Below are positions 10,320 to 64,000 of a stretch of 64,000 bases of DNA, piece after piece. Location: assembly GCA_963851415.1 (NCBI GenBank), contig CAWKPF010000002.1, positions 2,374,526 to 2,438,525 on the forward strand, given 5' to 3'. Made by a program: the position numbers and the translations under genes. Positions within the stretch are counted from its first letter, which is position 1. Every line of letters begins with the position of its first letter. Source of the stretch: an uncultured Acidobacteriota bacterium (lineage in GTDB: Bacteria > Acidobacteriota > Thermoanaerobaculia > Multivoradales > Multivoraceae). The notes beneath the pieces were generated by a model that was given only the letters and a program-made list of their open reading frames with translations, searched no databases and was not told the DNA's origin.

Positions 10320-10345
10320 CGCACTTCGGGAGCCACAGATCGGCC

Positions 10346-22266: not shown

Positions 22267-22421
22267 CGGCCGGAGGGCGAGGGACCCGGAGAGAGCACGA
22301 TGAGAGAAAGGACACGACTCAGGAGGGCTTCCATCCACCGAAGGCCGGGAAGTCCTCCTTCGAATGCCCAGCGCGCAATTCTATCGCAACTGTACGGGCG
22401 CGACGGGGTAGCATCTGGCCA

Positions 22422-24057: not shown

Positions 24058-24157
24058 GGAAGCGCTCGGGGGCTGGTGCCTCCTGCGGTCTTCAAAACCG
24101 TTTTGTCGTATGGGATGCCATGCGATGGGTGGGTTCGATTCCCATGCGCTTCCGCCA
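24058..24157 (+). tRNA. selC: tRNA-Sec (selenocysteine tRNA, anticodon UCA)
   Basis: 100 nt. 8-bp acceptor stem GGAAGCGC/GCGCTTCC, discriminator G, encoded CCA. 6-bp D-stem GGGGGC/GCCTCC with 4-nt loop TGGT. Anticodon loop cTTCAaa (U33 then TCA). Long 9-bp variable arm GTCGTATGG/CCATGCGAT. T-arm GTGGG-TTCGATT-CCCAT. Same GGAAG…CTTCCGCCA ends as E. coli selC. Confidence 0.8.
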
Positions 24158-29500: not shown

Positions 29501-29678
29501 TCTCTTCCGGTCCGACGTTGGGGTAGGAGGTCCAGACCGTCAAACGAGTGAATTCGATCTTCGGCAACAAGTCGACCGGAAGGCTGCGCAGTGAAACGAT
29601 GCCCAGCACGACCAGAATGAGGAAGACCATCGCGGTCGCGACCGGGCGACCGACAGAGATCCGAGTCAGATTGGACAC
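26568..29678 (-). CDS. RND efflux transporter permease (AcrB/CzcA superfamily)
   Basis: 1036 aa, 12-TM RND architecture. N-terminus [39 protein letters not shown] and internal repeats are typical of HAE/HME RND pumps. Confidence 0.9.
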
Positions 29679-29693: not shown

Positions 29694-31145
29694 TCAGAGG
29701 GTCGAAGCCGGCACCGGACCGCGCGGGACTGGTGTCTGGACACTCTTGCCGAGGAACTCTTCGTTGGTCGGGGGGGTCGCCCCACGCTCACGGGCGAGAC
29801 GCTGCTGCTTCTCGAGGAATCCGCGCAGCAGATCTTCTCGCTGAAGTCCCTGCAGCGCGACGACCTTCTCCCAGCTCGACTCTCGCACATGCGCCTCGAG
29901 TGTCTCCTCCTCGGAGGAAAAAAGGTGTTGGCCAAGCGTCACTACCCACTCGCCGGGCTCGACACCCGTGATACCCACGCTCTGGCGCCCCTCGGCGAGA
30001 ACCTCGACGGGGCGAAACTCGATCGGAAAGGCCTCCTCCGAGAGCTCGGCCGTTGCCACCGAGCCCAGATCCGCGGAGGTCACATCCGACGTCGGTGCCA
30101 AGCCAGAGACCGGACGACCCGACTCGGAGTAGCCCGCCGCCACGAAGACCCCGATCAATCCTGTCCTGGGGTCTTCCCAGAGAGCACTGGTCGGGACCAG
30201 GGTGGCTCGCTCGCTCTCGCCGTAGAGCACGTCGACCGTCACGAACATCCCGGGTCGGAGCGGACCATCGGTGTTCGCGACGTCGACCTCTCCGATGGTG
30301 CTGAAGCTGGTGGACTCGAGAAACGGCGAGATGCGTGACAACACTGCGCGCACACTGCCCTCGCCGAGAGACGAGGAGGAGATCTCGACTGGCAGCCCTT
30401 CGTCGATGTAGGCCAGCATTCCTTCGGTCAGGGGTACCTCGACGATGAGGGAGTTCAGATTGCCGATCTGGAAGAGCAGCGTGCCCGGGTCGACCAGCAT
30501 GCCGACCTCCACGTTGCGCTGCCCCACGCTGCCGGAGATCGGCGCGCGAACCAGGGTATCGGCGAGCTGAGAGCGCCGCTCCTGCACCGTTGCCTCGGCC
30601 TGCTGGACGCGAGCGCGGGCCGCCGCGGCAGACGCCTGGGTGGCCTGCAGCCGAGCTTCCTGGGTCTCGAGATCGACCTCACTGACCAGGTCCTGCTCCG
30701 CCAGAGCTCGGGTGCGCGTCACCTGGGCTTCGATTTCCGCCACTCGCGCCACGGCTTCCGCAGCGGAGGCTTCGGCCAATGCGACAGCCGCTTCGGCCTG
30801 ACGAAGCTGATCCTGGAGGGCATCGTCTTCGAGGCGCACCAGCGGCTGGCCAAACTCGACCAGCTGTCCGCTTCGAACCATGACCTCGAGCACGGGAGCA
30901 CTGATCTCCGGATAGATCGCCACCTGGTTCTCTGCCCGGACGACACCACTGAGGCGCTCCTGTAGCGGGAGTGCTCCGACCCTGGCCTGTACGATCTCGA
31001 CAGCGGGAATCGGACCCTGCTCGCGGTCTTCGAACGCTTCCTCAGACTCTCCGGAGCCGCAAGCCACCGTGCTCATGGCGATCGCTGCGACTGCGAGTGC
31101 CCAGCGCCTTTTCCAGAGCCGGCCCCCCGTCGTTTGACCCCGCAT
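29694..31145 (-). CDS. RND efflux periplasmic adaptor (membrane fusion protein)
   Basis: Signal/lipobox AIAMSTVACGSG, coiled-coil hairpin (LRQAEAAVALAE…ARLQATQASAAAARARVQQAEA) and biotinyl-lipoyl-like motif VRAPISGSV. Start trimmed to MRGQTTGG (31145). Confidence 0.8.
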   Translation of the reverse strand: MRGQTTGGRLWKRRWALAVAAIAMSTVACGSGESEEAFEDREQGPIPAVEIVQARVGALPLQERLSGVVRAENQVAIYPEISAPVLEVMVRSGQLVEFGQPLVRLEDDALQDQLRQAEAAVALAEASAAEAVARVAEIEAQVTRTRALAEQDLVSEVDLETQEARLQATQASAAAARARVQQAEATVQERRSQLADTLVRAPISGSVGQRNVEVGMLVDPGTLLFQIGNLNSLIVEVPLTEGMLAYIDEGLPVEISSSSLGEGSVRAVLSRISPFLESTSFSTIGEVDVANTDGPLRPGMFVTVDVLYGESERATLVPTSALWEDPRTGLIGVFVAAGYSESGRPVSGLAPTSDVTSADLGSVATAELSEEAFPIEFRPVEVLAEGRQSVGITGVEPGEWVVTLGQHLFSSEEETLEAHVRESSWEKVVALQGLQREDLLRGFLEKQQRLARERGATPPTNEEFLGKSVQTPVPRGPVPASTL

Positions 31146-31420
31146 CGAACTCACCTCCTCGAAATCAGACCGAGCGATCCTCCTCTGGGGGAAGGCCCGC
31201 TCCTGGGAACTTCTCCTATTTCTTCGATCCGGTACGCCGATCGGATGCCGGCGTACCCTTGAACCTACGCGATTTCCCAAAGGGCGGATGCAAGAAGCGT
31301 GTAAAACAGGTCCTGAGAGGGAGGCGCGAGCCGCCCGAGGCGGCCTCTAGCGGCAGCGACGGGCATGGGCCGCCGCGTGGCACGACGCACACTCTAGTAG
31401 TCTGCCCACCGGAGTTGCCC

Positions 31421-33835
31421 GTGGCCAGATTCAAGAAGAAGCGCGCCCAGAGCGCGTCTAGAAAGCGCAGCCCCTCCCCGAAGGCGCCCGAGCGCGCGAC
31501 CGAGCCCGAACGGCCCTCGGAGCCCTCGCCGAACCCGTGGCTCGCGGCCCTCGGTGTAGCGGCTCTCGTCGCCCTTCTCGTCCTGTCGACCGTCTGGCTC
31601 TCCCTCCGAGAAACCGGAGGCGCACAAGACCCATCGGAGCCGGCCGGCGCCGAGCCCCCGACCGAGGCGATCCGCGCCGAGGACCCGGCACGCGACTCCC
31701 ACGAGCGCATGCTGGCCGCGCTTCAGGAGATCCAACGCCGCACCGACACGGAGAACCCCTATCAGGGCACCTATCTCGCTCAACAAGCGCGCGCCGCCCT
31801 CGCGGCACTGCCCCCGGACGCCCCTGCCGGGTCTCGATTCAGGGCGCTGCGCGAGGCGGGGGACCACGAGCTTCGCCTGGGCAACGAGGCCGAAGCGATT
31901 GCTCGCTTCACCGAGGCCTACGAGCTGCTGCCCACCGCCGCTCCCGAGCTGTCGCGAGAGGAAGGACTCCGCCTCGTGTTCCGCCTGGGCCTCGCCCACC
32001 TGCGTTTCGGGGAAACCCGCAACTGCGCCCTCGATCACTCCGGCGAGAGCTGCATCCTGCCGCTCCGCGGCGGCGGCCTGCACCGCGAGCCCGAGGGCTC
32101 CCGCGAGGCGATGCGCTACTTCACCCAGGTCGCCGAGCTGGCGCCATCGGGCCATCCGATCTTCCTCAAGGCGATCTGGCTGCTCAACCTCGCCGCGATG
32201 ACCCTGGGCGAGCACCCCGATGGAGTGCCGCCCGAGCTGCTCATCCCACTGCCTCTGTATGGCTCCGACGCTGAACTGGTCCGCTTCGACAACGTGGCGC
32301 CGCATCTGGGGCTCGACACCTTCAACCTGTTCGGCGGCATGGTGGTAGATGACTTCACGGGCGACGACCTTCTCGACGTCGTCACCACGACCTTCGAGAC
32401 CTCCGGACAGATGCGCTTCTTTCGCAACGACGGGGACGGCACCTTCACCGACAGGACTCGCGAAGCCGGCCTCGAGGGGCTCTACGGCGGGCTCAACGTC
32501 CTGCAGGCCGACTACGACAACGACGGCGATCTCGACCTGTATGTGCTCCGTGGCGCCTGGCTCGAAGACGTCGGCCGACATCCCAATTCCCTGCTGCGCA
32601 ACGAGGGGGAGGGCCGTTTCGTCGATGTGACCTTCGCCGTGGGGCTGGGCCAGGAGCACTACCCGACCCAGACCGCCTCGTGGGCCGACATCGACAACGA
32701 CGGCGATGTCGATCTGTTCGTCGGCAACGAATCGAACGTCAAGCTGCCGGACGCACCCAGCCAGCTGTTTCGCAACGACGGCGAGAGCTCCGAAGATCGA
32801 CACTTCACCGAGATCTCGCTGTCCGCTGGGATCGACCACCGGAGTTTCGTCAAGGGAGTGGTCTGGGGAGACTACGACGGCGACCGCTTCCCTGACCTCT
32901 ACATCTCGACCCTGGGCGGCCCCAACCGACTGCTGCGCAACGACGCGAACGGACCGGGCGCCGATGCCACCTTCACCGACGTCACCGCCGAGCTCGGTGT
33001 CTCCGAGCCTCTCGATTCCTTCCCGGTCTGGTTCTGGGACTTCGACAACGACGGCTCCCTCGACCTCTACGTACCGAGCTACCGAGGCATCACCGATGCG
33101 GTCAGTGCGGTGGTGGCGAGCTACCTGGGACTCGAGCCGATTCTCGAGCTACCGCGCCTCTACCGTGGAAACGGCGAGGGCGGATTCGAGGAGGTCGCTG
33201 CTCGGAGCGGTCTCACGCGCATCCACATGCCGATGGGAGCCAACTTCGGCGACCTCGACAACGACGGCTTTCTCGACTTCTATCTCGGCACCGGCTACCC
33301 CGACTACGAGTCGCTCATGCCCAACGTCATGTACCGCAACGCCCAGGGACGACGCTTCGAGGACGTAACGCTCGCTGGGGGATTCGGCCACCTGCAGAAA
33401 GGCCACGCGGTGGCGTTCGCCGACTTCGATCAGGACGGCGACCAGGACGTCTTCGAGCAGATGGGAGGCGCCTTTCCCGGCGACCGATTTCACGACGCCC
33501 TGTTCGAGAACCCGGGATTCGGGAACCACTGGCTGAGCCTGCACCTCGTCGGAGAGCAGTCGAATCGCGCCGCGATCGGAGCCCGGATTCACGTCCGAAT
33601 CGAGGAAGCCGGCCGGGAGCGTTCCATCTACAAGCACGTCAACAGCGGTGGCAGCTTCGGCTCCAACCCCCTGCGCCAGACTCTCGGCCTCGGCCAGGCC
33701 TCTCGGATCCTCGAGCTCGAGATCTACTGGCCGACCAGCAATCTGACGCAGAGCTTCGAGGGAATCGAGCCAAATCGGCTCTATCGGGTCGTCGAAGGTC
33801 GAGACGGACTTCAGGAGCTGGCCTCGCTTCGATAG
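31421..33835 (+). CDS. CRTAC1-family protein (FG-GAP/VCBS beta-propeller repeats plus ASPIC/UnbV C-terminal domain) with N-terminal TM anchor and TPR-like region
   Basis: Repeated FRNDGDGTF / DYDNDGDLD / DIDNDGDVD / FDNDGSLD / DLDNDGFLDF calcium-binding FG-GAP motifs. C-terminal …WLSLHLVGEQSNRAAIGARIHV…NSGGSFGSNPLRQTLGLG… is UnbV/ASPIC. GTG start at 31421 with GGAG 6 nt upstream; the ORF-track 5' extension overlaps the adaptor gene on the other strand. Confidence 0.7.
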   Translation: MARFKKKRAQSASRKRSPSPKAPERATEPERPSEPSPNPWLAALGVAALVALLVLSTVWLSLRETGGAQDPSEPAGAEPPTEAIRAEDPARDSHERMLAALQEIQRRTDTENPYQGTYLAQQARAALAALPPDAPAGSRFRALREAGDHELRLGNEAEAIARFTEAYELLPTAAPELSREEGLRLVFRLGLAHLRFGETRNCALDHSGESCILPLRGGGLHREPEGSREAMRYFTQVAELAPSGHPIFLKAIWLLNLAAMTLGEHPDGVPPELLIPLPLYGSDAELVRFDNVAPHLGLDTFNLFGGMVVDDFTGDDLLDVVTTTFETSGQMRFFRNDGDGTFTDRTREAGLEGLYGGLNVLQADYDNDGDLDLYVLRGAWLEDVGRHPNSLLRNEGEGRFVDVTFAVGLGQEHYPTQTASWADIDNDGDVDLFVGNESNVKLPDAPSQLFRNDGESSEDRHFTEISLSAGIDHRSFVKGVVWGDYDGDRFPDLYISTLGGPNRLLRNDANGPGADATFTDVTAELGVSEPLDSFPVWFWDFDNDGSLDLYVPSYRGITDAVSAVVASYLGLEPILELPRLYRGNGEGGFEEVAARSGLTRIHMPMGANFGDLDNDGFLDFYLGTGYPDYESLMPNVMYRNAQGRRFEDVTLAGGFGHLQKGHAVAFADFDQDGDQDVFEQMGGAFPGDRFHDALFENPGFGNHWLSLHLVGEQSNRAAIGARIHVRIEEAGRERSIYKHVNSGGSFGSNPLRQTLGLGQASRILELEIYWPTSNLTQSFEGIEPNRLYRVVEGRDGLQELASLR

Positions 33836-42011: not shown

Positions 42012-43802
42012 TCAGAAGTCGACCGTGCTCTGGCAGCAGCGGTAACCGCCGGTCGGCAGAATCGGATAGGAGATCGAGAACGGCAGGCCCGGTGGGATGG
42101 AGAGCAGGGGGCTCAGGTCGATGGAGATCGGAGGCCACGGGGTGTCGAAGACCTGCCGGGTCGGGCTATTGGCCGAGGCGATGACGCCGCCTCCCTGAAG
42201 CCAGTCTCCCTGCTGGCAGCCGAGGCTCGAGGGGGGCGCACCATTCGCCAACTGGAAGATCTCGGGGGCCGAGCAGACGTGCCCTCCGAGCCCGGCACAC
42301 ACCGTTTCCGCGACGGCGTAGTCGAAGGTCTGATCGATTCCTGCGAAGACGGGGGGCATCGTCTCGATCGTGTGCTCCACATACTCTTCTCTCAGCTCGG
42401 GCAGATTGCACATGATCGAGAGCGAGTCGGGATTCTCGACGATCACTTCCGCCAGGTCGACCACGTTGGCGAAGGGGGCGAAGTCGAGGTTGCTCCAGCT
42501 GTTCGGGAGGTTGAGATTCCCGATGTTGACCGGGTTGGTCGGCCAGCAGTCGCCCGGACAGGCCTCGCCGTCGATGGTGTTGAACATCGGGTTGACGCCA
42601 TCTTCGACGAAGTTGTCGAAGCTGTTGAACAGGCTGTCGATCGCGCCGAAGGCCGAGCCCAGCGTGTTCTCCATCAGTACCTCGACGTCCGTGAGGGCCT
42701 TCTTGATCGGTGCCGTGTTGACGTCGATCGGTCCGCGCTCGAAGTACGCGGGGGAGCTCTTCGGCATGTTGGCCCACATGTCGCAGAGGGCCTGGACCTG
42801 ATCGGCGACCATCTGCTGGAAGTAGACCGTCTTCACGGTCTGGATCTTGCGTCCCGTGGCGCAGATTCTCTGCGTCTTGCCGTTCTGCTCGGGGAAGACC
42901 CGCTCGACGACGTCGAAGGGGGCCTCGCACTGCTCGAGCCCTCCGACCTCGGTGGCGAGATCGGCGAGGTCCGAAGACAGGGCCGCGAGATCGACCTGTG
43001 AAGCGGCACCGAGCTTGGTGCGTGCCGCCGCCGCGTTGACGGCACCGGTGCCGCCCTTGCCCACGCCCAGAGTCGTGCTCAGCGTCGCGGCGGAGCCGGC
43101 GATGTCGATGCCAGCCGTGCCGCTTGCCAGCTTTCCGGGGTCGAGGTCGGTGAGCAGGGAACCGTCGCCGGCGTATCCCTGGGCACTGATCAGCCCCTCG
43201 ACGCTGAAGGTAGCGCCCGGCGCTCCTCGCACGCCCGATCTGGCACTCTTGCGGACGGTCCCGCGGTCGGGCGCCGTCTGGGAACGGGCCGTCCGGGTCC
43301 CTTCGCGTGGTTCTGCGTCTTTCGCTTCGAGGTATCGCTGGACGACTGCGACAGCCGTCTCCAGATCGGGCTCGCTCGTCGCAGAGGCGACCCGAAAGAG
43401 GCTGGGCTCGGACCAGTCGGAAGAATCCAGCGAGCCCCCGGCCTCGGGGCGCAGAGCACGAATCGACCAGGCGTAGTCGGCCTCGTCGAGACAGCGCTCG
43501 AGCGACGGCGTCCACGATCGGGCCTGACCGGGAAGCCGCTGCGCGAGCACGCGCTGCGCCCTGCCGTCCTCTTCGTCGCTGAAGCGGTAGACCACCAGCT
43601 CGTAGCTGTCGGCCTGCTCGACCGCACCCCAGCTGAAGGTCGGGCAGGCCGCGGCCGTAGCTGCTCCGCTGGCCCGCCCCGGAGAGACCGCCAGGGGGAC
43701 CTCGGAAGCCGCCACCAGGTTGCCGAAGGTGAACGACACGAAGACACAGAAGAGCAGGGTGTTGCGGAGCACGGTGGGCGTCCTTTCGTGGGGGGAGCTC
43801 AT
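42012..43802 (-). CDS. secreted Cys-rich protein with FN3-like N-terminal domain and phage-tail-fibre-like GKGGTGAxNAAAARxxLG motif
   Basis: Start MSSPHERTP… (signal-like LLFCVFVSFTFGNLVAASE) overlaps the upstream stop by ATGA. Contains LGVGKGGTGAVNAAAARTKLGAAS, which resembles the conserved motif of phage tail-fibre / tail-spike proteins. C-terminal third has many Cys. Confidence 0.5.
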   Translation of the reverse strand: MSSPHERTPTVLRNTLLFCVFVSFTFGNLVAASEVPLAVSPGRASGAATAAACPTFSWGAVEQADSYELVVYRFSDEEDGRAQRVLAQRLPGQARSWTPSLERCLDEADYAWSIRALRPEAGGSLDSSDWSEPSLFRVASATSEPDLETAVAVVQRYLEAKDAEPREGTRTARSQTAPDRGTVRKSARSGVRGAPGATFSVEGLISAQGYAGDGSLLTDLDPGKLASGTAGIDIAGSAATLSTTLGVGKGGTGAVNAAAARTKLGAASQVDLAALSSDLADLATEVGGLEQCEAPFDVVERVFPEQNGKTQRICATGRKIQTVKTVYFQQMVADQVQALCDMWANMPKSSPAYFERGPIDVNTAPIKKALTDVEVLMENTLGSAFGAIDSLFNSFDNFVEDGVNPMFNTIDGEACPGDCWPTNPVNIGNLNLPNSWSNLDFAPFANVVDLAEVIVENPDSLSIMCNLPELREEYVEHTIETMPPVFAGIDQTFDYAVAETVCAGLGGHVCSAPEIFQLANGAPPSSLGCQQGDWLQGGGVIASANSPTRQVFDTPWPPISIDLSPLLSIPPGLPFSISYPILPTGGYRCCQSTVDF

Positions 43803-44278
43803 TTCAGGGGGCCGGTGGGGCCGCGGCCGACGACGCTCGACCATGCGGACGTCGTTCCCGCATCGAAACCATCGGCGAAGATCTCGCTGCACACGAGTGT
43901 CGGGTCTTTCTCGAGATGCACGTTCGTCGCGCTCACCTGCGAGGCTCCGAGGACAGCCATCGCCTCCCCGACGCAGGCGGTCTTCATGTCAAAGTTCCTC
44001 AGCACCACCGGACCGCCTTCCGATTCGATCCGGAGCGAGCCGGCGATGATGGTCGTGTCCTCCGCAGGACCGGCCAGAGTGAGACCTCGACCGACGGTGA
44101 TCGCTTCGGTGTAGGTACCGGCCGAGAGCTGGACCGTGGTGCACGATCCGTCGAGCACGGCACTCTGAATGGTCGCGTGGGAGCCGGGCACACTGCAGAT
44201 CTCTGCAGCGTGTGCAGCTGGGGCCGTCGCAGCCAGAGCGACCATCGATAGCCGAGCAAGACGTGAGTTTCTGAGCAT
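43799..44278 (-). CDS. small secreted protein with right-handed beta-helix-like N-terminal repeat
   Basis: Signal MLRNSRLARLSMVALAATAPAAHAAE. …ATIQSAVLDGSCTTVQLSAGTYTEAITVGRGLTLAG resembles pectate-lyase/NosD-type beta-helix caps. Translationally coupled to the downstream gene. Confidence 0.4.
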   Translation of the reverse strand: MLRNSRLARLSMVALAATAPAAHAAEICSVPGSHATIQSAVLDGSCTTVQLSAGTYTEAITVGRGLTLAGPAEDTTIIAGSLRIESEGGPVVLRNFDMKTACVGEAMAVLGASQVSATNVHLEKDPTLVCSEIFADGFDAGTTSAWSSVVGRGPTGPLK

Positions 44279-44416
44279 CAGGCCTCCTGACAAAGCGGTA
44301 GAGAAGCTCGCTGGTCCAGAAAGCGTCGTTGTTCGGCGAAAAGGATCACCCGGCGCTATCTCGAGAAGACCAAGCGCTCGAGACGACCAACGTCATGGGC
44401 AACAAGGAGGCGCGAA

Positions 44417-44790
44417 GTGGAGCCCCGAATCGAGGTTCTGGTGGCCAAGAAGCTGGTCGGCATGCGAGCCGAGATGTCCCTCGCCGTGGACCGACCCCTC
44501 AGCTCCGGCGGGCGTTCATGCCTGTGGGCGTGGTCGCCGATGTGCGCCACGGCGCGCTCTCGGAGGACCCCGGATCCCCGATGTACTACCGCACGCGCAG
44601 TTTCGACATTGGGCCAGCGGCCGTGCGATGTCGACTCTGGAGCTGGTGGTGCGCTCCCCACTCGAGCCGAATCGCTACTCAGTCGTCCGACAGTCGGCTC
44701 ACCCGCGATCGCCGTTTGAACCTGTGGCGAAACACCGCAGCTCCCCTGGCGGTTTCTCCCCGCCAATCCGTATAGGAGGGCGAAGAGGAG
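44417..44790 (+). pseudogene. possible GyrI-like (effector-binding domain) gene broken by at least 2 frameshifts
   Basis: MEPRIEVLVAKKLVGMRAEMSL (GyrI-like start) in one frame, …FMPVGVVADVRHGALSEDPGSPMYYRTRSFDIGP… in a second, …ELVVRSPLEPNRYSVVRQSAHPRSPF… in a third. No frame is intact. Confidence 0.3.
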
Positions 44791-44797
44791 GTGTCTC

Positions 44798-45364
44798 ATG
44801 CAGAGGAAAACCACGACATTCGCCGCAATCACGCTCCTGGGCGCCCTCTGGGCCGCCACCGGCCAGGCCGAAGATCCGTCAGATCACCCGATGATCGGGT
44901 CTCCGGCGCCCCCCTTCGAGCTCGAGTCCGTCAACGGCCACCCGCCGCTCTCGCTCGGAGAGCTGCGCGGCGGCTACGTCGTGGTGCACTTCGCAGCCAG
45001 CTGGTGACCGTTCTGTAATGCGGAGGCTCCGCATTTAGAAGCAGTGTCCCAGAAGTACCGGAACCGGAATGTCCGGGTCCTGATCATCGACGTGATGGAG
45101 GACTCGAAGGTGGCCTCCGACTGGGCGAAGCACCACGGTTTCAGCTTCCCGGTACTGCACGATGCCGAGGGCGAGGTCAGCACCCGTTACGCCCCCGAGG
45201 AAGTGCTCCCCGATCTGCCTCGGGACCAGGTCCCCATCGCCTCGAATCTGATCATCGATTCAGAAGGCAAGATCCAGTTCTACACGCTCCTCGACAGCCG
45301 GAACTTCGACGCCAAGCTGATTGCGCTACAGGCTCGACTGGACGAGCTGCTGGCACAGGACTGA
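44798..45364 (+). CDS. selenocysteine-containing thioredoxin-fold thiol:disulfide oxidoreductase (TlpA/ResA/redoxin family), Sec encoded by in-frame TGA at 45005-45007
   Basis: ORFs 44798-45007 and 45044-45364 are in the same frame. Read-through gives signal peptide MQRKTTTFAAITLLGALWAATGQA…VVVHFAASW-U-PFCNAEAPHLEAV…, i.e. the redoxin motif WCxxCRxExPxL with U in place of the first Cys. selC is present at 24058. Confidence 0.75.
45018..45034 (+). promoter_or_regulatory. bacterial SECIS-like hairpin 10 nt downstream of the UGA-Sec codon
   Basis: atgcgg-aggct-ccgcat (6-bp stem, extendable to 9 bp with flanking a/t) begins 11 nt after the TGA. Apical loop contains G, as in bacterial SECIS elements. 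Confidence 0.5.
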
Positions 45365-45612
45365 GGTCGGCGCGGGGCGCCCTAGTGCCAGACACGGGTA
45401 GCCTGACTCGCGCGGTGGCGACCCCGGTCGCCTCGCCCACCTCGATCGGTGACTCGAAGCTCCTGCCTGCGTCGCGGGAGAGCGCCGCCCGGATCCGCGG
45501 CACCCCCTCGACTTTGCAGGCCCTTCGCGATCCTGTGGCGGTCTCTCGCGCCGGATCGCGTTCTTCATCAGATAGATGCACAATGAATCTTCCAACTGGA
45601 AGGAGGCGTCCA

Positions 45613-47292
45613 ATGAGCACCTCGCCGAAGAGCCCTCTACTCGCCCTTTCGATCCTCGCCGCTGCCTGCGCTCCGGCCGAAGACACGGCCATCGGCACCG
45701 ACACGGGTGAGACCACGACCGCGATCGAGGTGATCTCCGACCAGGGAGAAGCTCTGGGATTCGTTGCCTTCCCTACCTCCTGCACGGAGGCTGCGCAGGT
45801 GGAGATCGAGCGCGGACTCGCCCTCCTCCACCACATGAACTACGTCAACGCCGAGCCCGTATTCCTGCGGGCTGCCGAGCTCGATCCCGAGTGCGCAATC
45901 GCCTACTGGGGTGCCGCGATGACCTACGTCCACCCGCTCTGGCCCGACACCATCTCTCCCGAGAATCGCGAAGCGGGCGAAGCCCTGCTCGCGCGCGCCG
46001 AGACCGCGGCGAACAAGAGCTCCCGAGAGGCCAAGTACGTGGCCGCACTCCAGGGCTACTACGAGGGAGCCGAGCGCAGCGAGCGCGAGCGCCTGGCGAG
46101 CTACCTCGCCGGCTACATGGTGCTGCACGCCGAGTACCCCGACGATCCGGAAGCGGCAGCATTCCACGCGCTGGGGCTGCTGGCGAATGCGCCGGCCGAA
46201 GACAAGACGTACGCGCTGCAGTCGGAAGCGGGTGAGATCCTCGAAGGTCTGCTCGCCCAGGTGCCGAAACACCCGGGCGGCCACCACTACACGATTCACG
46301 CCTACGACTTTCCGCCGCTCGCCGAACGCGCCCTCGACATTGCCCGCCGCTACGATGATCTGGCTCCGGAGAACACGCACGCGCTCCACATGACGAGTCA
46401 CATCTTCACGCGCCTCGGGCTGTGGCCAGAGTCGATCGAGTTCAACCTCCGTGCCGCCGAGGCCTCGAAGAAGCGCACCGCCTCGGGTCAGGTCTCGCTG
46501 CATCACCTGCACGCCTACGACTACCTGGCATACGCCTACCTGCAGCAGGCGCGCGACAACGCGGCCAACGAAGTGCTCGCCAAGCTCGAGGCACTCGAGC
46601 CACCCTTCCAGAATCACTCCGCCACCGCCTACACGTTTGCCGCGGTTCCCGCTCGGCTGGCACTCGAACGTCACGACTGGGCGAAGGCCGCGCAGGTCGA
46701 GACTCGGTGGCCGAGCGAGCTCGAGTGGGACCAGTACCCCTATCTCGACGCGATCCCGTACTTCGCCCGCGCCATGGGCGCAGCCCGCACCGGCAAACCC
46801 GACGCAGCTCGCCTGGCGATCGCCGAGCTCGGCCGACTCGAAGAAGCCGCCGGCAGTCTCGATATCGCCTACGACTGGGCGATCCAGGTGGCGATCCAGA
46901 AGACCGCGGCGCAGGCGTGGCTGGCCTACGAGTCGGGCGACGTCGAAGGCGGACTCGAGTTGGCGCGCAAGGCGGCGGCGATGGAAGGCTCGACCGAGAA
47001 GAACCCGGTGACGCCGGGCGAGGTCCTGCCCGCCCGCGAGCTCTACGGAGACATGCTGCTCGAGGCCGGACGGTACGAGGAGGCGGTGGCCGCCTACGAG
47101 CGGTCCCTCGAGCGCTCGCCCAACCGATTCAACAGCCTCTACGGCGCCGGCCGGGCCGCCGAGCTGGACGGCAACGTTGAAGGGGCGGCGCAGTTCTACG
47201 CTCAGTTGATCGAGGTTGCCGCCACGTCGGACAGCGACCGCGAAGAGCTCGAGCACGCGCATCAGTTTGTCGAGACCGCGTCGGCGGCCTGA
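45613..47292 (+). CDS. TPR-repeat lipoprotein, unknown function
   Basis: Signal/lipobox LLALSILAAACAP; GGAGG 7 nt upstream of the ATG at 45613. Several TPR-like helical pairs (e.g. …YEEAVAAYERSLERSPNRFNSLYGAGRAAELDGNVEGAAQFY…). Confidence 0.55.
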   Translation: MSTSPKSPLLALSILAAACAPAEDTAIGTDTGETTTAIEVISDQGEALGFVAFPTSCTEAAQVEIERGLALLHHMNYVNAEPVFLRAAELDPECAIAYWGAAMTYVHPLWPDTISPENREAGEALLARAETAANKSSREAKYVAALQGYYEGAERSERERLASYLAGYMVLHAEYPDDPEAAAFHALGLLANAPAEDKTYALQSEAGEILEGLLAQVPKHPGGHHYTIHAYDFPPLAERALDIARRYDDLAPENTHALHMTSHIFTRLGLWPESIEFNLRAAEASKKRTASGQVSLHHLHAYDYLAYAYLQQARDNAANEVLAKLEALEPPFQNHSATAYTFAAVPARLALERHDWAKAAQVETRWPSELEWDQYPYLDAIPYFARAMGAARTGKPDAARLAIAELGRLEEAAGSLDIAYDWAIQVAIQKTAAQAWLAYESGDVEGGLELARKAAAMEGSTEKNPVTPGEVLPARELYGDMLLEAGRYEEAVAAYERSLERSPNRFNSLYGAGRAAELDGNVEGAAQFYAQLIEVAATSDSDREELEHAHQFVETASAA

Positions 47293-54708: not shown

Positions 54709-55728
54709 TCACCTCGGCGCGCCCGAGGTCACCTGCCACTGGTTGAGTCTTCCGGACTCGAAGTTGTCGCCGAACACGGTCGCCCTCGATCTGAACCAGT
54801 CCCGTGACGTGGCGTCTGTCTTCAGGAAGTCCATCAACATTCCCGCGACCTTCGCTCGCCCGATCATCGACGGGTGCGTGCCATCGGCTCCGAGATCGCT
54901 GCAGGCGTACTCCAGGCCGTCCGAACGACCCGGTTGACCGCCCGGCTGTCCGTCCGGGCCGAGACCGTCCGCCCAGAGATACGGGCCCCACGCCAGCCAG
55001 GGAGCTCGAACCGTTCCGGCGGCGGGATTGAAGTTCAGACCCGGGTCGCCGGCCAGTTGATCCTCGATCAGCCACTTCACCGCGAACCCACCCTGATAGG
55101 CAAACGGTTCGGGGTTGAGCGGCAGATTGGCATAGCCGGCGTAGATGCGGCTGCTCAAGTAGGCGATCTCGAGGTTCGGAAAGCGCTCCTTGAGGGTCTG
55201 AACGGTGGTGCGCAGGAGGTCGCGCAGCCAGAGGCTCCGTTCCGGAAACGTCTGCGGTGAAAAGGGGCCGGCGGAGGCGGCGAGCTTGATCCAGGCGACC
55301 TGGACCTGCATCGGCGTGAGGCCGGCCGCGCTCAGCTTCGAATCGAGAAGGCTCCAGGCCAGACTCCCCGGGTCGGCCCACGAGACGGCGTCCATGCTTC
55401 CCTCCGCCCCGTTGACGGGAACGATGTGCGGCTTGATATCCGGGTCGTCGCTGGCCATCGAGATGAAGGTGTCGAACTCACCCTCTGTGTTCGACATCCC
55501 AACGGACAGCAGTCCGATCTTCCCCGAGGTGGGGGCCGCCTGTCCTTGCGGATCCAAGGGTCTGAGCGAGCGAGCGAAATACAGGCCGGCCGACTCGTGC
55601 GCTCCCGGCCGCGTGTTGGACCCGCCCGGATAGAGTCCGCCCTCTTCTCCCTGGTAGGTACCCCTGCCCAGGTCGGTGAGGGGGACCAGTCCAACGGAGG
55701 TGTTGCTGCACGCTCCCCCGGCTCCTCC
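54709..55728 (-). CDS. secreted SGNH hydrolase, copy B (N-terminally truncated, in-frame continuation of copy A)
   Basis: Block I IGLLSVGMSNT, block V DGTHPSMIGRAKVAG (DxxH). 95-100% identical at nucleotide level to 55729-56785 and 63168-64000. Confidence 0.6.
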   Translation of the reverse strand, partial: GGAGGACSNTSVGLVPLTDLGRGTYQGEEGGLYPGGSNTRPGAHESAGLYFARSLRPLDPQGQAAPTSGKIGLLSVGMSNTEGEFDTFISMASDDPDIKPHIVPVNGAEGSMDAVSWADPGSLAWSLLDSKLSAAGLTPMQVQVAWIKLAASAGPFSPQTFPERSLWLRDLLRTTVQTLKERFPNLEIAYLSSRIYAGYANLPLNPEPFAYQGGFAVKWLIEDQLAGDPGLNFNPAAGTVRAPWLAWGPYLWADGLGPDGQPGGQPGRSDGLEYACSDLGADGTHPSMIGRAKVAGMLMDFLKTDATSRDWFRSRATVFGDNFESGRLNQWQVTSGAPR

Positions 55729-56785
55729 GGTCGAGCTCGATCCGAACCAGTCCCGTGACGTGGTGTCCGTCTTCAGGAAGTCCATCAACATTCCCGCGAC
55801 CTTCGCTCGCCCGATCATCGACGGGTGCGTGCCATCGGCTCCGAGATCGCTGCAGGCGTACTCCAGGCCGTCCGAGCGGCCCGGTTGACCGCCCGGCTGT
55901 CCGTCCGGGCCGAGACCGTCCGCCCAGAGATACGGGCCCCACGCCAGCCAGGGAGCTCGAACCGTTCCGGCGGCGGGATTGAAGTTCAGACCCGGGTCGC
56001 CGGCCAGTTGATCCTCGATCAGCCACTTCACCGCGAACCCACCCTGATAGGCAAACGGTTCGGGGTTGAGCGGCAGATTGGCATAGCCGGCGTAGATGCG
56101 GCTGCTCAAGTAGGCGATCTCGAGGTTCGGAAAGCGCTCCTTGAGGGTCTGAACGGTGGTGCGCAGGAGGTCGCGCAGCCAGAGGCTCCGTTCTGGAAAC
56201 GTCTGGGGGGGAAGACGGGCCGCCCGAGGCGGCGAGCTTGATCCAGGCGACCTGGACCTGCATCGGCGTGAGGCCGGCCGCGCTCAGCTTCGAATCGAGA
56301 AGTCTCCAGGCCCGACTCCCCGGGTCGGCCCACGAAACGGCGTCCATGCTTCCCTCCGCACCGTTGACGGGAACGATGTGCGGCCCGATATCCGGGTCGT
56401 CGCTGGCCATCGAGATGAAGGTGTCGAACTCACCCTTCGTGTTCGACATCCCGACCGACAGCAGTCCGATCTTCCCCGAGGTGGGGGCCGCCTGTCCCTG
56501 CGGATCCAAGGGTCTGAGCGAGCGAGCGAGATCGAGGCCGGCCGACTCGTGCGCTCCCGGCCGGGTGTTGGACCCGCCCGGGTAGAGTCCGCCCTCCTCT
56601 CCCTGGTAGCTACCGCTGCCCAGGTCGGTGAGCGGGATCAATCCAACGGAGGTGCTGCTGCACACTCCCCCCCGGTGCACGAGGTGGGACTCGGCGCCCG
56701 CAGGGCCGGCGAGCACCATGAGTGCAACGAGGACCGTGGGCGCCAGCCCGAGCCCGAGCCTCTCCGGGCGTACTCTGAATCTCAT
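55729..56785 (-). pseudogene. secreted SGNH hydrolase, copy A (signal peptide intact; +1 frameshift in G7 tract 56205-56211; C-terminal 20 aa replaced by fusion to copy B)
   Basis: MRFRVRPERLGLGLAPTVLVALMVLAGPAGA signal with GGAGAG RBS. Copy C and copy B read …KLAAS(G/A)GP(S/F)SPQTFPERS… across cttcccccc (G6/none), whereas copy A has cttccccccc (G7), shifting the frame. Confidence 0.6.
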
Positions 56786-57022
56786 TATAGGACTCTCCAA
56801 AAATCGACAAATGCAAGATAGATCACAACCAGATCTCCCATTGTTGCCGATCTGGCGGCCCGATAGCCAGCCCCGGGGAGGGAGACCGCCGGGGGACCAC
56901 TGCGGGAACGGCCCGGTTCTCGAGGGCGTCGCGCTACGGAAGCGGCTCGTATGCAGGTACCTTCGAGGCTCGCGCCGAAGTGGATTCCGATCGATTCTGT
57001 CGGAGTTCTAGGAGCACAGTGC

Positions 57023-57526: not shown

Positions 57527-58978
57527 TCAGGGCAGGGTGTAGGTCACCACCAGCTCGGGATAGTTCGCCGAACTGGGAGTCTCTCCGGAGTAGTAACCGA
57601 ACGCGTCGTTGGCTTCGTCGTCGTCGTCGTCGAGCTCGAAGTACACCCGCATCTGGGTGATGCCGGTGGGGTCGATGGCCGCCAGGCCAGCGCTGTCGAG
57701 CGTGCCTTCGGACCAGTCGCGAATGTTCGGGGCCCCTGACAGGGTCGCCGACTGCGTCACCGTCGCCGGGCTCTCGAAGTCGCTCGGCTGCAAGGCCGGA
57801 TTGCCGCTGAAGCCACCGGTCTGCACGTCGACGTGACAGGCTCCGAGTGCCAAGAACGGATTTCCCCCGAATTGAGGACCGCGCCGAATCCTGAGGGTCG
57901 CCATCTCGATCACCGCGCCCTCGGGTAGCAGCGACGTGTCGAAAGAGAAGATCGCCTTGATCTGCTTGTCCAACCCGTCGTCGCCGATCCGCACGGCCGG
58001 CCCCTGACTGATGACACCACCGACGTTGCTGTCCTCGCTCGACTCGAACACGGTACCGTCGTCGGCGCCGATGGAATAGAGGATCATCTCCTGCACTCCG
58101 CCAGCGGGACCGACGACCAGCGAGATCGAGTCGACGTTGACGTTGCCGTCGGCATCGGTCGCGGTAGCCGTGATCAGGTGCGAGCCCTCCGAAAGAGCGG
58201 CGGAGAACGAGCCTCCGGTGCCGATGGCGCCGTCGAGGCTCGACTCCCAGGCCAGACTTGCCGTGACGTCACCGTCCTTCGCGTCGTTCGCCGACCCGAG
58301 GAAGGCGATGAGCTCGCCCGCATCGAAGGGCTCGCCGTCCGTCGGTGCGCCGATGGTCACCACCGGTGCCGCCGTGCCCTCGAAATAGCTCAGCGCGTGA
58401 TCGAACGCTTCCGGACCGATGGCGTAGCCCATGAGGCGCCCGGGAATGTCGTCCGCCGGCGGATGGATGCCGCCCCAGATGCGCGAGAGGCTCGTCTGGT
58501 CCGACGCGTCGTGGTAGGTCGCCCACTGCAGCGTCGATCGTCCACGCTCGGGCCGTCCTCGAACACGAGGAACTCGTTCTGCGGCGCCGGGAACTCGCCG
58601 AGCCCGCCCGGGAAGTACGTCGAGCCCGTGAGCAGCGTCATGCACCTCGGCGGCCGCGCGGCTGTAGGTGCTGTGCCCGGAGACGTAGCCGGCGAAGGGC
58701 GGCGTCACGAAGGTCGGCCGCTGATAGGGCCACCAGTCCTCGGCGAGGATCCAGCCGACGCCGGCGACGTCGGTCGTCCGGGTCTGCGATGAAGTCGGGG
58801 CCGCGCCAGGCGCGGATCGCGATCTTGCCGACGTCGCGCGGCGAGGTGCTCGTGGCGCTCGCCCGGCGCGCTGCTCGTCGGCCGTGACGACCTCGATCGA
58901 AGCCCGGACGCAGCGCGATGCCGTCCGGGTCGTAGCGACGGGACCTGGCGGATCGGAGCACTGGCCGCGCTCGGCCAT
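57527..58978 (-). CDS. intact C-terminal portion of a secreted PAP2/vanadium-haloperoxidase-like protein (PAP2 motifs, Ig-like domain, conserved ~170-aa beta-sandwich domain)
   Basis: PAP2 signature pieces …YQRPTF…VSGHST…SRIWGGIHPPADD (KxxxxxxRP…PSGH…SRxxxxxHxxxD). Ig-like segment …AWESSLDGAIGTGGSFSAALSEGSHLITATATDADGNV…. Ends …MRVYFELDDDDDEANDAFGYYSGETPSSANYPELVVTYTLP. Confidence 0.55.
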   Translation of the reverse strand: MAERGQCSDPPGPVATTRTASRCVRASIEVVTADEQRAGRAPRAPRRATSARSRSAPGAAPTSSQTRTTDVAGVGWILAEDWWPYQRPTFVTPPFAGYVSGHSTYSRAAAEVHDAAHGLDVLPGRARRVPGAAERVPRVRGRPERGRSTLQWATYHDASDQTSLSRIWGGIHPPADDIPGRLMGYAIGPEAFDHALSYFEGTAAPVVTIGAPTDGEPFDAGELIAFLGSANDAKDGDVTASLAWESSLDGAIGTGGSFSAALSEGSHLITATATDADGNVNVDSISLVVGPAGGVQEMILYSIGADDGTVFESSEDSNVGGVISQGPAVRIGDDGLDKQIKAIFSFDTSLLPEGAVIEMATLRIRRGPQFGGNPFLALGACHVDVQTGGFSGNPALQPSDFESPATVTQSATLSGAPNIRDWSEGTLDSAGLAAIDPTGITQMRVYFELDDDDDEANDAFGYYSGETPSSANYPELVVTYTLP

Positions 58979-60190
58979 GGTAGCGGATCGCGGAGATCGG
59001 ACGGATGTAGTCGTACCAGCCCTTGATGCCCCAGGCGGCGATCGCCACGTCGTGCATCGCGCCGCCGAGCATGAGGTAGACCTTCACGTCCCACTCGAGG
59101 TCGTCGAGCGATCGGCCCCGTCCCGCCGATGCGCTTCTCGACGAGCGGATGATCGGTGACGTAGTTGGCGATCGTGAACCAGTGCCCGGGCGGCGTCTCG
59201 GAGTCCGGGCCGTCGGCCCAGAACTCGGCGAGCACGCGCGCGTAGTCGCCGCGCGGGCACGATCTGCGGCGTGTAGGGCTGGCCGGTCACCGGGTTCACG
59301 GGTAGCCCGTGCCCCAGTCGCCGCCGTCCTCGAAGTCGTAGTAGGCCGCCAGTCGCCCGGATCCGGCAGCGGGCGTTGCCGATCGAGGCGGGCGAGATGT
59401 CGATCATCACGCCGTCGGTCGGGTCGAGGTGGCCGACTCCAGACGACGCCGACCATGCTCGAAGCCGTCCAGGTAGTCGTCGCCGTCGGCGGCCGAGCAG
59501 CGGCGGCGGCCCCGGATCGTGGTAGACCCAGTAGTCGAAGCCGTCGCGCGTGGTAGATCGTCAGGTCGTCGGGCGTCGAGCGCGAACGGCGTCGACCTGG
59601 CCCCACTCCGGGACTCAGGAATGGCGGGAAGCCGCCGGGGATCGGGTTGCCGCACTGGTCGATGAAGAAGTCGAGCGCGAGCGGCTGCCAGCGGTTCGGA
59701 TCGACCAGGTCCGGGTTGCCGGGCAGCGCCGGCGAGCAGCGGCGGGTTGACCGGCTCGTAGTACAGGTTCGCGTAGCCGTTCGGCCTCGTTCGAGCCGTC
59801 GGCGAGGCCGAACGCGATGCACGGCCGCGGCGATGCGGTTGCCGAGCGCCGCGGGCGGTCGCGTCGCCCGCGGTCGTCGTGAATCGCGTGTCGTAGCCGA
59901 GCTCGGCCATCCGATCGTCGCACGAGACGGCAGTGATACGCGCGCCCGGCGAGCTCGCGAAGCGGCAGCTCAGGATGCGGTAGGCCGCGTAGCTGATCGC
60001 CTCTTCGCGGGCCGCCGGCACGTCCGCCGCCGTGGCGCTCTCGTCGTGGAGGATCGTGGTCGGCCGTGCCGTCGTAGGCCGCCCAGGCGTCCCACATCGC
60101 CACCGAGACGTGGAAGAGGTTGCGCGCGTGCACCGTCGGCCGCGCGAAGTCGCGGCGGATCGCCGTCGAGCAGCTCCTCGTTCCACTGCC
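57527..60190 (-). pseudogene. PAP2/vanadium-haloperoxidase-like gene whose 5' two-thirds (58500-60200) is scattered over at least 4 reading frames
   Basis: Real-looking haloperoxidase pieces in different frames: ARNLFHVSVAMWDAWAAYDG (59615-60445 frame), YANLYYEPVNPPL (59407-60186 frame), LDDLEWDVKVYLMLGGAMHDVAIAAWGIKGWYDYIRPISAIRYHG (58638-59822 frame), LAEFWADGPDSETPPGHWFTIANYVTDHPLVEKR (58705-59235 frame). Confidence 0.45.
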
Positions 60191-63167: not shown

Positions 63168-64000
63168 TCAGTGCCCGCGGACCTCGAGCATGCCGAGCTC
63201 CCTCACGGAGAGCGCGCCCGAGGTCACCTGCCACTGGTTGAGGTTTCCGGACTCGAAGTCGTCGCCGAACACGGTCGAGCTCGATCCGAACCAGTCCCGT
63301 GACGTGGCGTCTGTCTTCAGGAAGTCCATCAACATTCCCGCGACCTTCGCTCGCCCGATCATCGACGGGTGCGTGCCATCGGCTCCGAGATCGCTGCAGG
63401 CGTACTCCAGGCCGTCCGAACGACCCGGTTGACCGCCCGGCTGTCCGTCCGGGCCGAGACCGTCCGCCCAGAGATACGGGCCCCACGCCAGCCAGGGAGC
63501 TCGAACCGTTCCGGCGGCGGGATTGAAGTTCAGACCCGGGTCGCCGGCCAGTTGATCCTCGATCAGCCACTTCACCGCGAACCCACCCTGATAGGCAAAC
63601 GGTTCGGGGTTGAGCGGCAGATTGGCATAGCCGGCGTAGATGCGGCTGCTCAAGTAGGCGATCTCGAGGTTCGGAAAGCGCTCCTTGAGGGTCTGAACGG
63701 TGGTGCGCAGGAGGTCGCGCAGCCAGACGCTCCGTTCTGGAAACGTCTGGGGGGAAGACGGGCCGCCCGAGGCGGCGAGCTTGATCCAGGCGACCTGGAC
63801 CTGCATCGACGTGAGGCCGGCCGCGCTCAGCTTCGAATCGAGAAGGCTCCAGGCCCGACTTCCCGGGTCGGCCCACGAGACGGCGTCCATGCTTCCCTCC
63901 GCCCCGTTGACGGGAACGATGTGCGGCTCGATATCCGGGTCGTCGCTGGCCATCGAGATGAAGGTGTCGAACTCACCCTTCGTGTTCGACATCCCGACCG
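63168..64000 (-). CDS. secreted SGNH hydrolase, copy C (intact C-terminus; N-terminus beyond window end)
   Basis: …GMSNTKGEFDTFISMASDDPDIEPHIVPVNGAEGSMDAV…DGTHPSMIGRAKVAGMLMDFLKTDATSRDWFGSSSTVFGDDFESGNLNQWQVTSGA…. The only copy retaining the ancestral C-terminal tail. Confidence 0.7.
   Translation of the reverse strand, partial: VGMSNTKGEFDTFISMASDDPDIEPHIVPVNGAEGSMDAVSWADPGSRAWSLLDSKLSAAGLTSMQVQVAWIKLAASGGPSSPQTFPERSVWLRDLLRTTVQTLKERFPNLEIAYLSSRIYAGYANLPLNPEPFAYQGGFAVKWLIEDQLAGDPGLNFNPAAGTVRAPWLAWGPYLWADGLGPDGQPGGQPGRSDGLEYACSDLGADGTHPSMIGRAKVAGMLMDFLKTDATSRDWFGSSSTVFGDDFESGNLNQWQVTSGALSVRELGMLEVRGH

Follow-up and report, generated by a model that had tools for sequence, protein, structure and literature searches.

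The window, by which we mean the whole 64,000-nt stretch of DNA that was analysed, carries on its forward strand a gene for a TlpA/ResA-like redoxin with an in-frame TGA, and a gene for a selenocysteine (Sec) tRNA. The features that we discuss are as follows.

24058–24157, forward strand: tRNA-Sec gene (selC), anticodon UCA (ARAGORN; Rfam RF01852)
44787–44791, forward strand: putative Shine-Dalgarno-like GGAGG, 6 nt 5' of the ATG (read from the sequence)
44798–45364, forward strand: single predicted CDS of 188 codons, TlpA/ResA-like redoxin with in-frame TGA (Sec70) (translation, Pfam, homologues)
44798–44869, forward strand: predicted Sec-type signal peptide, residues 1–24, MQRKTTTFAAITLLGALWAATGQA (by inspection)
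45005–45007, forward strand: TGA predicted to be read as selenocysteine (U70), the N-terminal nucleophile of the active site (homologue alignment, recurrence)
45005–45016, forward strand: U-P-F-C redox motif, TGA CCG TTC TGT (sequence, translation, homologue alignment)
45011–45040, forward strand: candidate SECIS element (fold energy, Sec-versus-Cys contrast, codon choice)

A preliminary description of this DNA proposed that two ORFs, 44798–45007 (69 aa) and 45044–45364 (106 aa), belong to one frame split by a TGA at a redoxin active site, and translation bears out both points. The TGA at 45005–45007 is the lone stop between 44798 and the final codon of the downstream ORF, and an ordinary TGA stop closes the CDS at 45362–45364. 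The read-through product runs ...VVVHFAASW-[TGA]-PFCNAEAPHLEAV..., with W-U-P-F-C at the active site. The annotation as two fragments, which had also been anticipated, is found in the public gene calls of the source genome (69 + 106 aa). Relatives are likewise split in public data, or are shown with Trp at the active site.

Since automated annotation calls both ORFs and a GTG start exists at 45044, one may consider two products, with the UGA ending a 69-residue exported peptide and the C-terminal domain starting separately at the GTG. This arrangement is highly improbable. The C-terminal piece would be without a signal peptide, without a redox motif (no CxxC occurs in the downstream ORF) and without half of the thioredoxin fold. 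All homologues are single full-length chains, and the amino acids PFCNAEAPHLEAV encoded between the TGA and the GTG, which would go untranslated, are conserved in every one of them. We conclude that 44798–45364 is very probably one gene, encoding an exported TlpA/ResA/CcmG-type oxidoreductase in which the attacking Cys of CxxC is replaced by selenocysteine.

Homologues in the databases are 50–61% identical, and 115 of the 119 full-length ones have Cys at the TGA position, as the first Cys of CxxC. They continue past this position to a length of 180–190 aa and share the nearly invariant block HFA-x-x-W-C-P-F-C-N-A-E-A-P. Nine GTDB species genomes proved to carry this TGA when searched with a DNA pattern, and all of them have open and conserved frames on both sides; they belong to Thermoanaerobaculia (including Ca. 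Multivoradales), Terriglobia, Desulfobulbaceae (Desulfobacterota) and Calditrichia. The best 80 loci of a metagenome search, seeded by C-terminal peptides only, comprise 60 with TGA and 20 with TGY at the codon 70 position. An intact, selected frame on either side of a retained TGA is found at 69 independent loci. The preliminary description considered exported Sec redoxins uncommon, which does not hold for the closest metagenome relatives, where the Sec form outnumbers the Cys form by the same 60 to 20. Moreover, few predicted selenoproteins of bacteria are as abundant as the UxxC Prx-like/TlpA-like proteins (PMC1088965, PMC2398784, PMC13188914).

In pairwise comparisons of 57 distinct coding sequences of the Sec form, the mean difference at the first, second and third codon positions is 0.31, 0.25 and 0.59 downstream of the TGA, and 0.36, 0.25 and 0.60 upstream. 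These values show that purifying selection acts on the reading frame both before and after the UGA. They bear directly on the possibility of a pseudogene, in which a TGY-to-TGA nonsense mutation in an ordinary Cys TlpA-like gene would have left the two ORFs as decaying remnants. A single base change turns TGT or TGC into TGA, and gene callers do give separate products; however, selection downstream of the TGA equals that upstream, and the TGA is common to nine genomes of at least three phyla as well as to most of the best metagenome loci. Decay, which we regard as very unlikely, is also at odds with the tRNA-Sec gene in the window, with a hairpin whose frozen synonymous sites are peculiar to the TGA forms, and with the rare codons recruited for it. 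That a sequencing or assembly error made a spurious TGA in a normal Cys gene is barely conceivable: nothing more than the single-base distance from TGY speaks for it, whereas the ERR12037369 and ERR15459714 assemblies, made from independent read sets and additional to the 4.74-Mb contig, contain the identical 69-aa and 106-aa products at the same distance from each other, and the TGA co-occurs with a Sec-specific hairpin.

The hairpin that would direct Sec insertion lies within the coding sequence, just past the UGA. The 6-bp helix described earlier (atgcgg/ccgcat, 45018–45023 and 45029–45034) is the core of an upper stem of 8 bp (45017–45024 with 45028–45035) capped by the apical loop GGC (45025–45027); a bulged U at 45016 separates it from a lower stem of 5 bp (45011–45015 with 45036–45040). 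The bSECIS model (PMC13188914, Fig. 2) specifies an apical loop of 3–9 nt with G in the first two loop positions, an upper stem of 4–16 bp, a UGA-to-loop distance of 16–37 nt and an MFE of -7.5 kcal/mol or lower. The predicted element agrees with the model throughout, with its 3-nt loop starting GG, its upper stem, a UGA-to-loop spacing of 17 nt and an MFE of -13.9 kcal/mol. None of 200 dinucleotide shuffles was as stable as the 31-nt hairpin (z = -4.4), but a wider 61-nt segment around it is not significant by itself (z = -1.15). The single-sequence fold alone is therefore weak evidence, and the comparative data carry the case.

The hairpin is retained in every Sec form. Only one of 49 distinct Sec-form sequences departs from the 15-nt core of the element, UGCGGAGGCUCCGCA, whereas 20 Cys forms show free variation at its synonymous sites. 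Third positions that are free in the Cys forms are fixed in the Sec forms (GCG, GAG and GCU in 54/54 each, CCG in 53/54), and the mean hairpin dG is -10.1 kcal/mol in Sec forms versus -2.9 in Cys forms. Within the Sec forms, the third-position difference is 0.26 for the SECIS codons as against 0.59 elsewhere. These contrasts show that the hairpin is under Sec-specific selection. Since the stem is nearly invariant, with 6 of 13 pairs never changing, covariation statistics are weak; at pair 17:33, 37 sequences have A-U and 7 have G-C. The case for the hairpin therefore rests on how Sec and Cys forms differ at synonymous sites and not on compensatory changes. Codon choice in the hairpin is unusual for a genome of 65% GC: it uses the locally rare AAT, GCT, CAT and TTA (joint probability 7.7e-7), TTA being 1 of the 1087 Leu codons of the window.

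The element resembles the SECIS of E. coli fdhF in being a stem-loop within the ORF directly 3' of the UGA, with a UGA spacing inside 16–37 nt and a small loop starting GG; the fdhF loop has G, then G or U, in the published consensus (PMC13188914). Unlike fdhF, it is fixed in its core jointly by the peptide N-A-E-A-P-H and by the RNA, and the two show no sequence likeness beyond the loop G's. A search of Rfam returned no SECIS family at the gathering threshold, tRNA-Sec being the only match.

The tRNA-Sec gene, already reported in the preliminary description, is identified by ARAGORN (anticodon TCA) and by Rfam RF01852 (71.4 bits, gathering score 47). Of the Sec machinery, the window shows nothing else: a Pfam scan of about 50 ORFs found no selA, selB or selD in the 64 kb. 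TGA is the ordinary stop in 17 of the 26 confident genes of the window, including the redoxin's own, and the genetic code is therefore normal. When in-frame TGAs flanked by coding-like ORFs were screened, with coding-like composition and a redox motif demanded, the redoxin was the only selenoprotein gene obtained from the window. A promoter and terminator scan of 44200–45700 gave nothing relevant, and tblastn of five window neighbours against 89 loci produced no matches. When the flanking ORFs were clustered all against all, no partner recurred in more than about 10 loci. Genes for cytochrome c maturation, Sco or a CcdA/DsbD partner were not found in the window.

Sec machinery is able to insert Cys under selenium limitation. 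It can thus be asked whether the UGA is often recoded otherwise than as Sec, either as Cys, through mis-charged tRNA-Sec when selenium is scarce, or as Trp, through near-cognate read-through; three database entries do have Trp at the Sec site. The Trp entries come from short contigs and are most simply explained as gene-caller artefacts in which code 4 was applied to the TGA. A hairpin of the SelB type and a tRNA-Sec gene point to the canonical pathway, and TGA is the usual stop in the genome. Frequent recoding as Cys or Trp is hence improbable.

Pfam models extend across the TGA (AhpC-TSA, 1.5e-22; Redoxin, 3.5e-19), and the score for PF00578 is 80.2 bits against a gathering score of 26. The AlphaFold model of P0001, a Cys homologue 61% identical to the window protein, has a pLDDT of 87.7 and places the redox motif directly before helix 63–79. 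In the PDB it is matched best by ResA, other TlpA-like proteins and CcmG, with TM values of 0.83–0.88 (normalised to target) and E about 1e-13 for ResA. Judged from the model, the fold is ResA/TlpA/CcmG-like. E76 of the window protein, invariant in 68 sequences, aligns with the Glu of ResA that lies three residues past the second Cys (cpfcnaEaP versus cphckkEfP). The signal peptide noted earlier is also seen here: the N-terminus, MQRKTTTFAAITLLGALWAATGQA followed by ED, has by eye the n-, h- and c-regions of a Sec-type signal peptide, and an N-terminal hydrophobic segment is present at 64 of 70 Sec-form loci and at all 20 Cys-form loci. Residues 1–22 of the P0001 model have low pLDDT.

The protein thus shares with the ResA/TlpA/CcmG(DsbE)/StoA group (cd02966) the thioredoxin fold with its N-terminal extension and central insert, the W-C-x-x-C-x-x-E-x-P signature and a predicted N-terminal export signal, and its best PDB matches in sequence and fold fall in that group. 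It differs in having Sec for the first Cys, and the redoxin subfamily has a conserved block of its own, APE-VLPDLPRD-VPIASNLIID. The protein is not an orthologue of ResA, DsbE, TlpA or StoA, because its scores are far under the NCBIfam cut-offs (65 versus 170, 39 versus 123, 25 versus 230 and 41 versus 210, respectively). Membership extends to the superfamily only, and a role in the maturation of cytochrome c or of Cu centres is therefore not to be assumed. Assignment to the peroxiredoxins (Prx/BCP) was likewise rejected: the sequence A-S-W-U has no Thr/Ser at -3 of P-x-x-x-T/S-x-x-C(U), and the PrxQ and BCP models score 19–25 bits against cut-offs of 140–260.

Bacterial selenoproteins of the redoxin UxxC kind have been predicted since 2004–2005, and the window gene is a further member. 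The family concerned is the Prx-like thiol:disulfide oxidoreductase, or "Prx-like 1" (PF00578, UxxC; Table 1 of PMC13188914), described in a series of studies (Kryukov and Gladyshev, 2004; Zhang et al., 2005, 2006, 2008). A review of 2026 describes the Prx-like UxxC class as a whole as no more than "predicted with high confidence" (PMC13188914). The window protein is likewise predicted only, and it resembles the family in its UxxC with Sec first, in place of the TxxU of true Sec-peroxiredoxins, in a PF00578 score well over threshold and in a SECIS inside the CDS just past the UGA. Published Prx-like members from the Sargasso and GOS data share the W-U-P-[FY]-C context. BLASTP against two published members gives 20–32% identity at E about 1e-10, with their Sec aligned to U70. 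In contrast to the marine Prx-like sets, the main sources of the redoxin subfamily are Acidobacteriota, Desulfobacterota, Calditrichia, and metagenomes of soil or sediment. Another known family, the UGC TlpA-like selenoproteins (NF041054), also consists of Sec-containing ResA/TlpA-like redoxins, but has U-G-C (WAxxUGC) where the window protein has U-x-x-C, and a longer model of 354 positions. Membership in NF041054 was rejected, the score being 30 bits against a cut-off of 300 and the motif W-U-P-F-C.

The analysis establishes the Sec/Cys pair, selection on the frame through the TGA, selection on the hairpin in Sec forms, the presence of a tRNA-Sec gene and the class of fold. The mechanism that we propose is wholly inferred from the established bacterial Sec pathway, and this applies to the actual incorporation of selenium, to export, and to the substrate and reductant. 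With the UGA at 45005–45007 in the A site, 17 nt before the apical loop, Sec would be inserted and termination avoided. The pre-protein would then be exported via the Sec pathway and its 24-residue signal peptide cleaved. Once in the periplasm, Sec70 may attack a substrate disulfide from its place at the N-terminus of helix alpha-1, and Cys73 would resolve the mixed selenenylsulfide. A membrane electron shuttle like CcdA/DsbD, for which the window has no gene, might then reduce the oxidised Sec70-Cys73 bond again.

It is possible, although we hold the view only tentatively and lean somewhat against it, that these exported TlpA/ResA-like redoxins, marked by the signature HFA-x-x-W-U-PFC-NAEAPHLE, form a distinct subfamily without a catalogue entry of its own. 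The UPFCNAE signature is absent from the Sargasso and GOS supplementary sequence sets. In such a subfamily selenocysteine would be the majority state and probably ancestral. The Cys forms fall into two nested clades, one large and one small, and the named relatives in the large one are mostly Bacteroidota (Chitinophagaceae, Cytophagales). The 15-nt SECIS core would be identical in nucleotides over at least three phyla, and public data would systematically mis-annotate the members, either as two fragments or with an active-site Trp. If the proposal is true, proteins of this subfamily would be well suited to proving by experiment, for the first time, that a UxxC selenoprotein exists in the periplasm.

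The finding leaves existing knowledge of selenoprotein biology unchanged. The UxxC Prx-like/TlpA-like class is only predicted, and a conserved, Sec-rich subfamily is a reasonable candidate for its verification. The synonymous sites, frozen in 49 Sec-form and free in 20 Cys-form sequences, amount to a clean natural experiment, and SECIS elements of other families can be validated on the model of this contrast. As for the organism, an Acidobacteriota-like genome, placed only by named homologues of the RND pump, appears to use the Sec trait for a redox protein that is probably exported.

The gene at 44798-45364 is correctly called as a selenoprotein gene that automated annotation has cut in two. 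Its halves were annotated as follows:

44798-45007, + strand, upstream ORF, 69 aa
45044-45364, + strand, downstream ORF, 106 aa, frame shared with 44798-45007

Translation of the frame confirms the preliminary description in that the two ORFs are separated by a TGA at 45005-45007, the sole stop within 44798-45364. The read-through product has 188 residues (MQRKTTTFAAITLLGALWAATGQA followed by EDPSDHPMIGSPAPPFELESVNGHPPLSLGELRGGYVVVHFAASW-U-PFCNAEAPHLEAV...), with the TGA at position 70 (U70), and Pfam matches span this position when Cys is put in its place (AhpC-TSA, 1.5e-22; Redoxin, 3.5e-19). The source genome's own two halves in a large protein collection, P0002 and P0121, are located on one 4,741,237-bp NCBI/ENA contig, and the same pair with identical spacing is found again in two independent Logan assemblies, which rules out sequencing error as the source of the TGA. 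The genetic code of the source is standard, since TGA is the commonest ordinary stop in the window (17 of 26 genes) and the redoxin gene's own terminator is a TGA with no comparable hairpin 3' of it.

A search of the protein collection gave 832 homologues, the best of them full-length (~180-190 aa), 50-61% identical and annotated at source as TlpA family disulfide reductase, redoxin or peroxiredoxin. The TGA aligns, as had been proposed, to the first Cys of the nearly invariant motif H-F-A-[AT]-[ST]-W-C-P-[FY]-C-N-A-E-A-P. Among the matches listed, 119 homologues are full-length and have Cys (115), Trp (3) or Ser (1) at the site; P0002 and P0121 are the only fragment-length entries. The Trp entries (P0032, P0043 and P0094; SWWPFC) most likely come from short contigs on which gene calling under code 4 rendered the TGA as Trp; the Ser entry is P0033 (SWSPFC).

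The TGA recurs in other genomes. The degenerate DNA pattern TGG-TGA-CCN-TWY-TGY-AAY-GCN-GAR-G matched nine species-representative genomes, in all of which the frame is open and conserved on either side of the TGA and the C-terminus is shared.

Genomes with the TGA form, by lineage
Thermoanaerobaculia: 3
Ca. Multivoradales (also Thermoanaerobaculia): 1
Terriglobia: 1
Desulfobulbaceae: 2
Calditrichia: 2

Metagenomes were searched with two C-terminal peptide patterns only, so that the search was blind to the active-site codon; the best 80 loci comprise 60 with TGA (Sec forms) and 20 with TGT or TGC (Cys forms). Pairwise comparison of 57 distinct Sec-form coding sequences gives average differences, for codon positions 1/2/3, of 0.36/0.25/0.60 before the TGA and 0.31/0.25/0.59 after it. 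As the matching pattern on either side shows, the segment after the TGA evolves as a translated protein; neither a pseudogene nor two independent genes can account for such coding-like divergence downstream.

The SECIS-like hairpin reported after the TGA was recovered in a fuller form, at 45011-45040 (UUCUG-U-AAUGCGGA-GGC-UCCGCAUU-UAGAA). It folds at -13.9 kcal/mol (z = -4.4), and none of 200 shuffles was equally stable. A looser 61-nt window folds without significance (z = -1.15), and single-sequence folding is thus by itself insufficient for a SECIS claim. The bacterial consensus has an apical loop of 3-9 nt with G in the first two loop positions, mostly then G or U, an upper stem of 4-16 bp, 16-37 nt between UGA and loop, and a minimum free energy of at most -7.5 kcal/mol (PMC13188914, Fig. 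2 legend). The window element, with its GGC loop, 8-bp upper stem, 17-nt spacing and -13.9 kcal/mol, falls within all four of these ranges.

The decisive evidence for a putative SECIS is comparative. The third positions of the stem and loop codons GCG, GAG, GCU and CCG are fixed in 54, 54, 54 and 53 of 54 distinct Sec-form 60-mers; in the 20 Cys forms they vary among all four bases or between the two purines, with the peptide N-A-E-A-P unchanged. Third positions just beyond the hairpin vary in both forms alike. Third-position divergence is 0.26 in the SECIS codons versus 0.59 elsewhere, and the local folding energy averages -10.1 kcal/mol for Sec forms versus -2.9 for Cys forms. A 15-nt core, UGCGGAGGCUCCGCA, is identical in 48 of 49 distinct Sec-form sequences from at least three phyla, the exception (locus L001) having one mismatch. 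Covariation is weak because 6 of the 13 hairpin pairs never vary; the one informative pair, columns 17:33 (A-U 37, G-C 7, unpaired 4), switches together with Asn-to-Gly/Ser and CAU-to-CAC. In this genome of 65% GC the window hairpin uses the codons AAT, GCT, CAT and TTA; of the 1087 Leu codons in 18 confident genes, one is TTA. Taken jointly, the hairpin's seven codon choices have a probability of 7.7e-7.

The window also holds the tRNA-Sec gene noted earlier:

24058-24157, + strand, tRNA-Sec gene (ARAGORN anticodon TCA; Rfam RF01852, 71.4 bits against a gathering score of 47)

It lies between genes for a MoeA-like molybdopterin molybdenumtransferase (22254-23648) and a SulP/STAS anion permease (24851-26527); ModA/ModB-like ABC transporter parts are at 8869-10661. 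Within the 64-kb window there is no selA, selB or selD, and a screen of its every in-frame TGA gave no second selenoprotein candidate. Sec use has been reported in Acidobacteriota (PMC1794560).

The protein is a member of the TlpA/ResA-like superfamily. Its sequence matches in the PDB are ResA, Geobacter "thioredoxin family" proteins, CcmG/DsbE, StoA and TlpA. A model of the Cys homologue P0001 (61% identical to the window protein; 69-sequence alignment; pLDDT 87.7, pTM 0.81) has its signal-peptide-equivalent residues disordered and C-x-x-C directly before helix 63-79, where the nucleophile canonically sits. Its top Foldseek matches in the PDB are ResA, a Bacillus anthracis thiol-disulfide oxidoreductase, DsbE/CcmG proteins and further TlpA-like domains (target-normalised TM ~0.8-0.88). 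E76 and P78 of the window protein correspond to the ResA Glu and Pro after the second Cys, and E76 does not vary across 68 family members. Orthology to characterised enzymes was rejected, as every NCBIfam score is below its cut-off (ResA 65/170, DsbE 39/123, TlpA 25/230, StoA 41/210, Sec-containing WAxxUGC family 30/300). Unlike true peroxiredoxins, the protein has no peroxidatic T-x-x-C context. The signal peptide described for the product is likewise predicted here: 64 of 70 Sec forms, that of the window among them, and 20 of 20 Cys forms begin with a hydrophobic segment. Leaderless variants of the same selenoprotein thus exist (L020, L023, L047, L066, L083 and L086), with ORFs beginning a few codons ahead of the conserved QPMIG block; presumably these are cytoplasmic.

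The redoxin gene stands alone, with a divergent gene upstream (43799-44293) and a TPR protein gene next downstream in the same orientation; none of its window neighbours, these two included, recurs beside homologues. The two divergent genes at 42012-44293 (- strand; 626 aa and 164 aa) have signal-peptide-like N-termini, no Pfam match and no relatives adjoining the redoxin at other loci. The window has no genes for CcdA/DsbD, cytochrome c maturation or Sco. A second exported thioredoxin-fold protein (2389-3492, - strand; SurA_N and Thioredoxin_4/DSBA domains) has an uninterrupted ORF and hence no in-frame TGA. An RND pump (26568-29678) has 70-74% identity with proteins whose names assign them to Acidobacteriota, Thermoanaerobaculia or Vicinamibacteria, so an acidobacterium is the probable source. 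Two large proteins with FG-GAP/ASPIC-UnbV repeats are encoded at 30971-33835 (+) and 59970-62732 (-); ORF 57527-58978 (no Pfam match) contains DNA stretches 71-79% identical to the gene of the second (57539-58075 versus 60222-60770). A ~951-bp unit occurs in three copies at 54717-56507 and 63212-64000 (94-99% identity, one comparison 82%), two in tandem (period 951-952 bp) and a third 7.5 kb off that runs past the window end; it overlaps - strand ORFs 54709-56109, 55478-56800 and 63168-63992, all without Pfam match.

The gene belongs to a well-known kind of selenoprotein. From the first prokaryotic selenoproteome surveys onward, UxxC "Prx-like" proteins (PF00578) have counted among bacterial selenoproteins, and the view that exported Sec redoxins are uncommon did not hold, with 22 UxxC Prx-like sequences in the Sargasso Sea set and 225 "Prx-like 1" in the GOS set (PMC1088965, PMC2398784). 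Others are known from Geobacter, Syntrophus, Desulfotalea and elsewhere (PMC1794560); the class is "predicted with high confidence", not experimentally verified (PMC13188914). Published members already include W-u-P-F-C, as here, and W-u-P-Y-C-N-A-E contexts. Two of them align their Sec on U70 at just 20-32% identity, and the exact signature UPFCNAE is in neither marine supplement (Sargasso, GOS). Possibly the window protein represents a Sec-dominated and so far uncatalogued subfamily.

In the mechanism that we propose, SelB with Sec-tRNA(Sec) would bind the hairpin at 45011-45040 and bring Sec to UGA 45005-45007. The pre-protein would be exported by the Sec pathway and its signal peptide cut after Ala24. 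Sec70 would attack substrate disulfides, Cys73 would resolve the selenenylsulfide, and a CcdA/DsbD-type shuttle would re-reduce the enzyme. With the U/C site masked, a crude neighbour-joining tree places the Cys forms in two clades (18 sequences, and 2 with a C-P-Y-C motif) nested among Sec forms, which suggests the hypothesis that Sec is ancestral within the subfamily and that Sec-to-Cys replacements came later.
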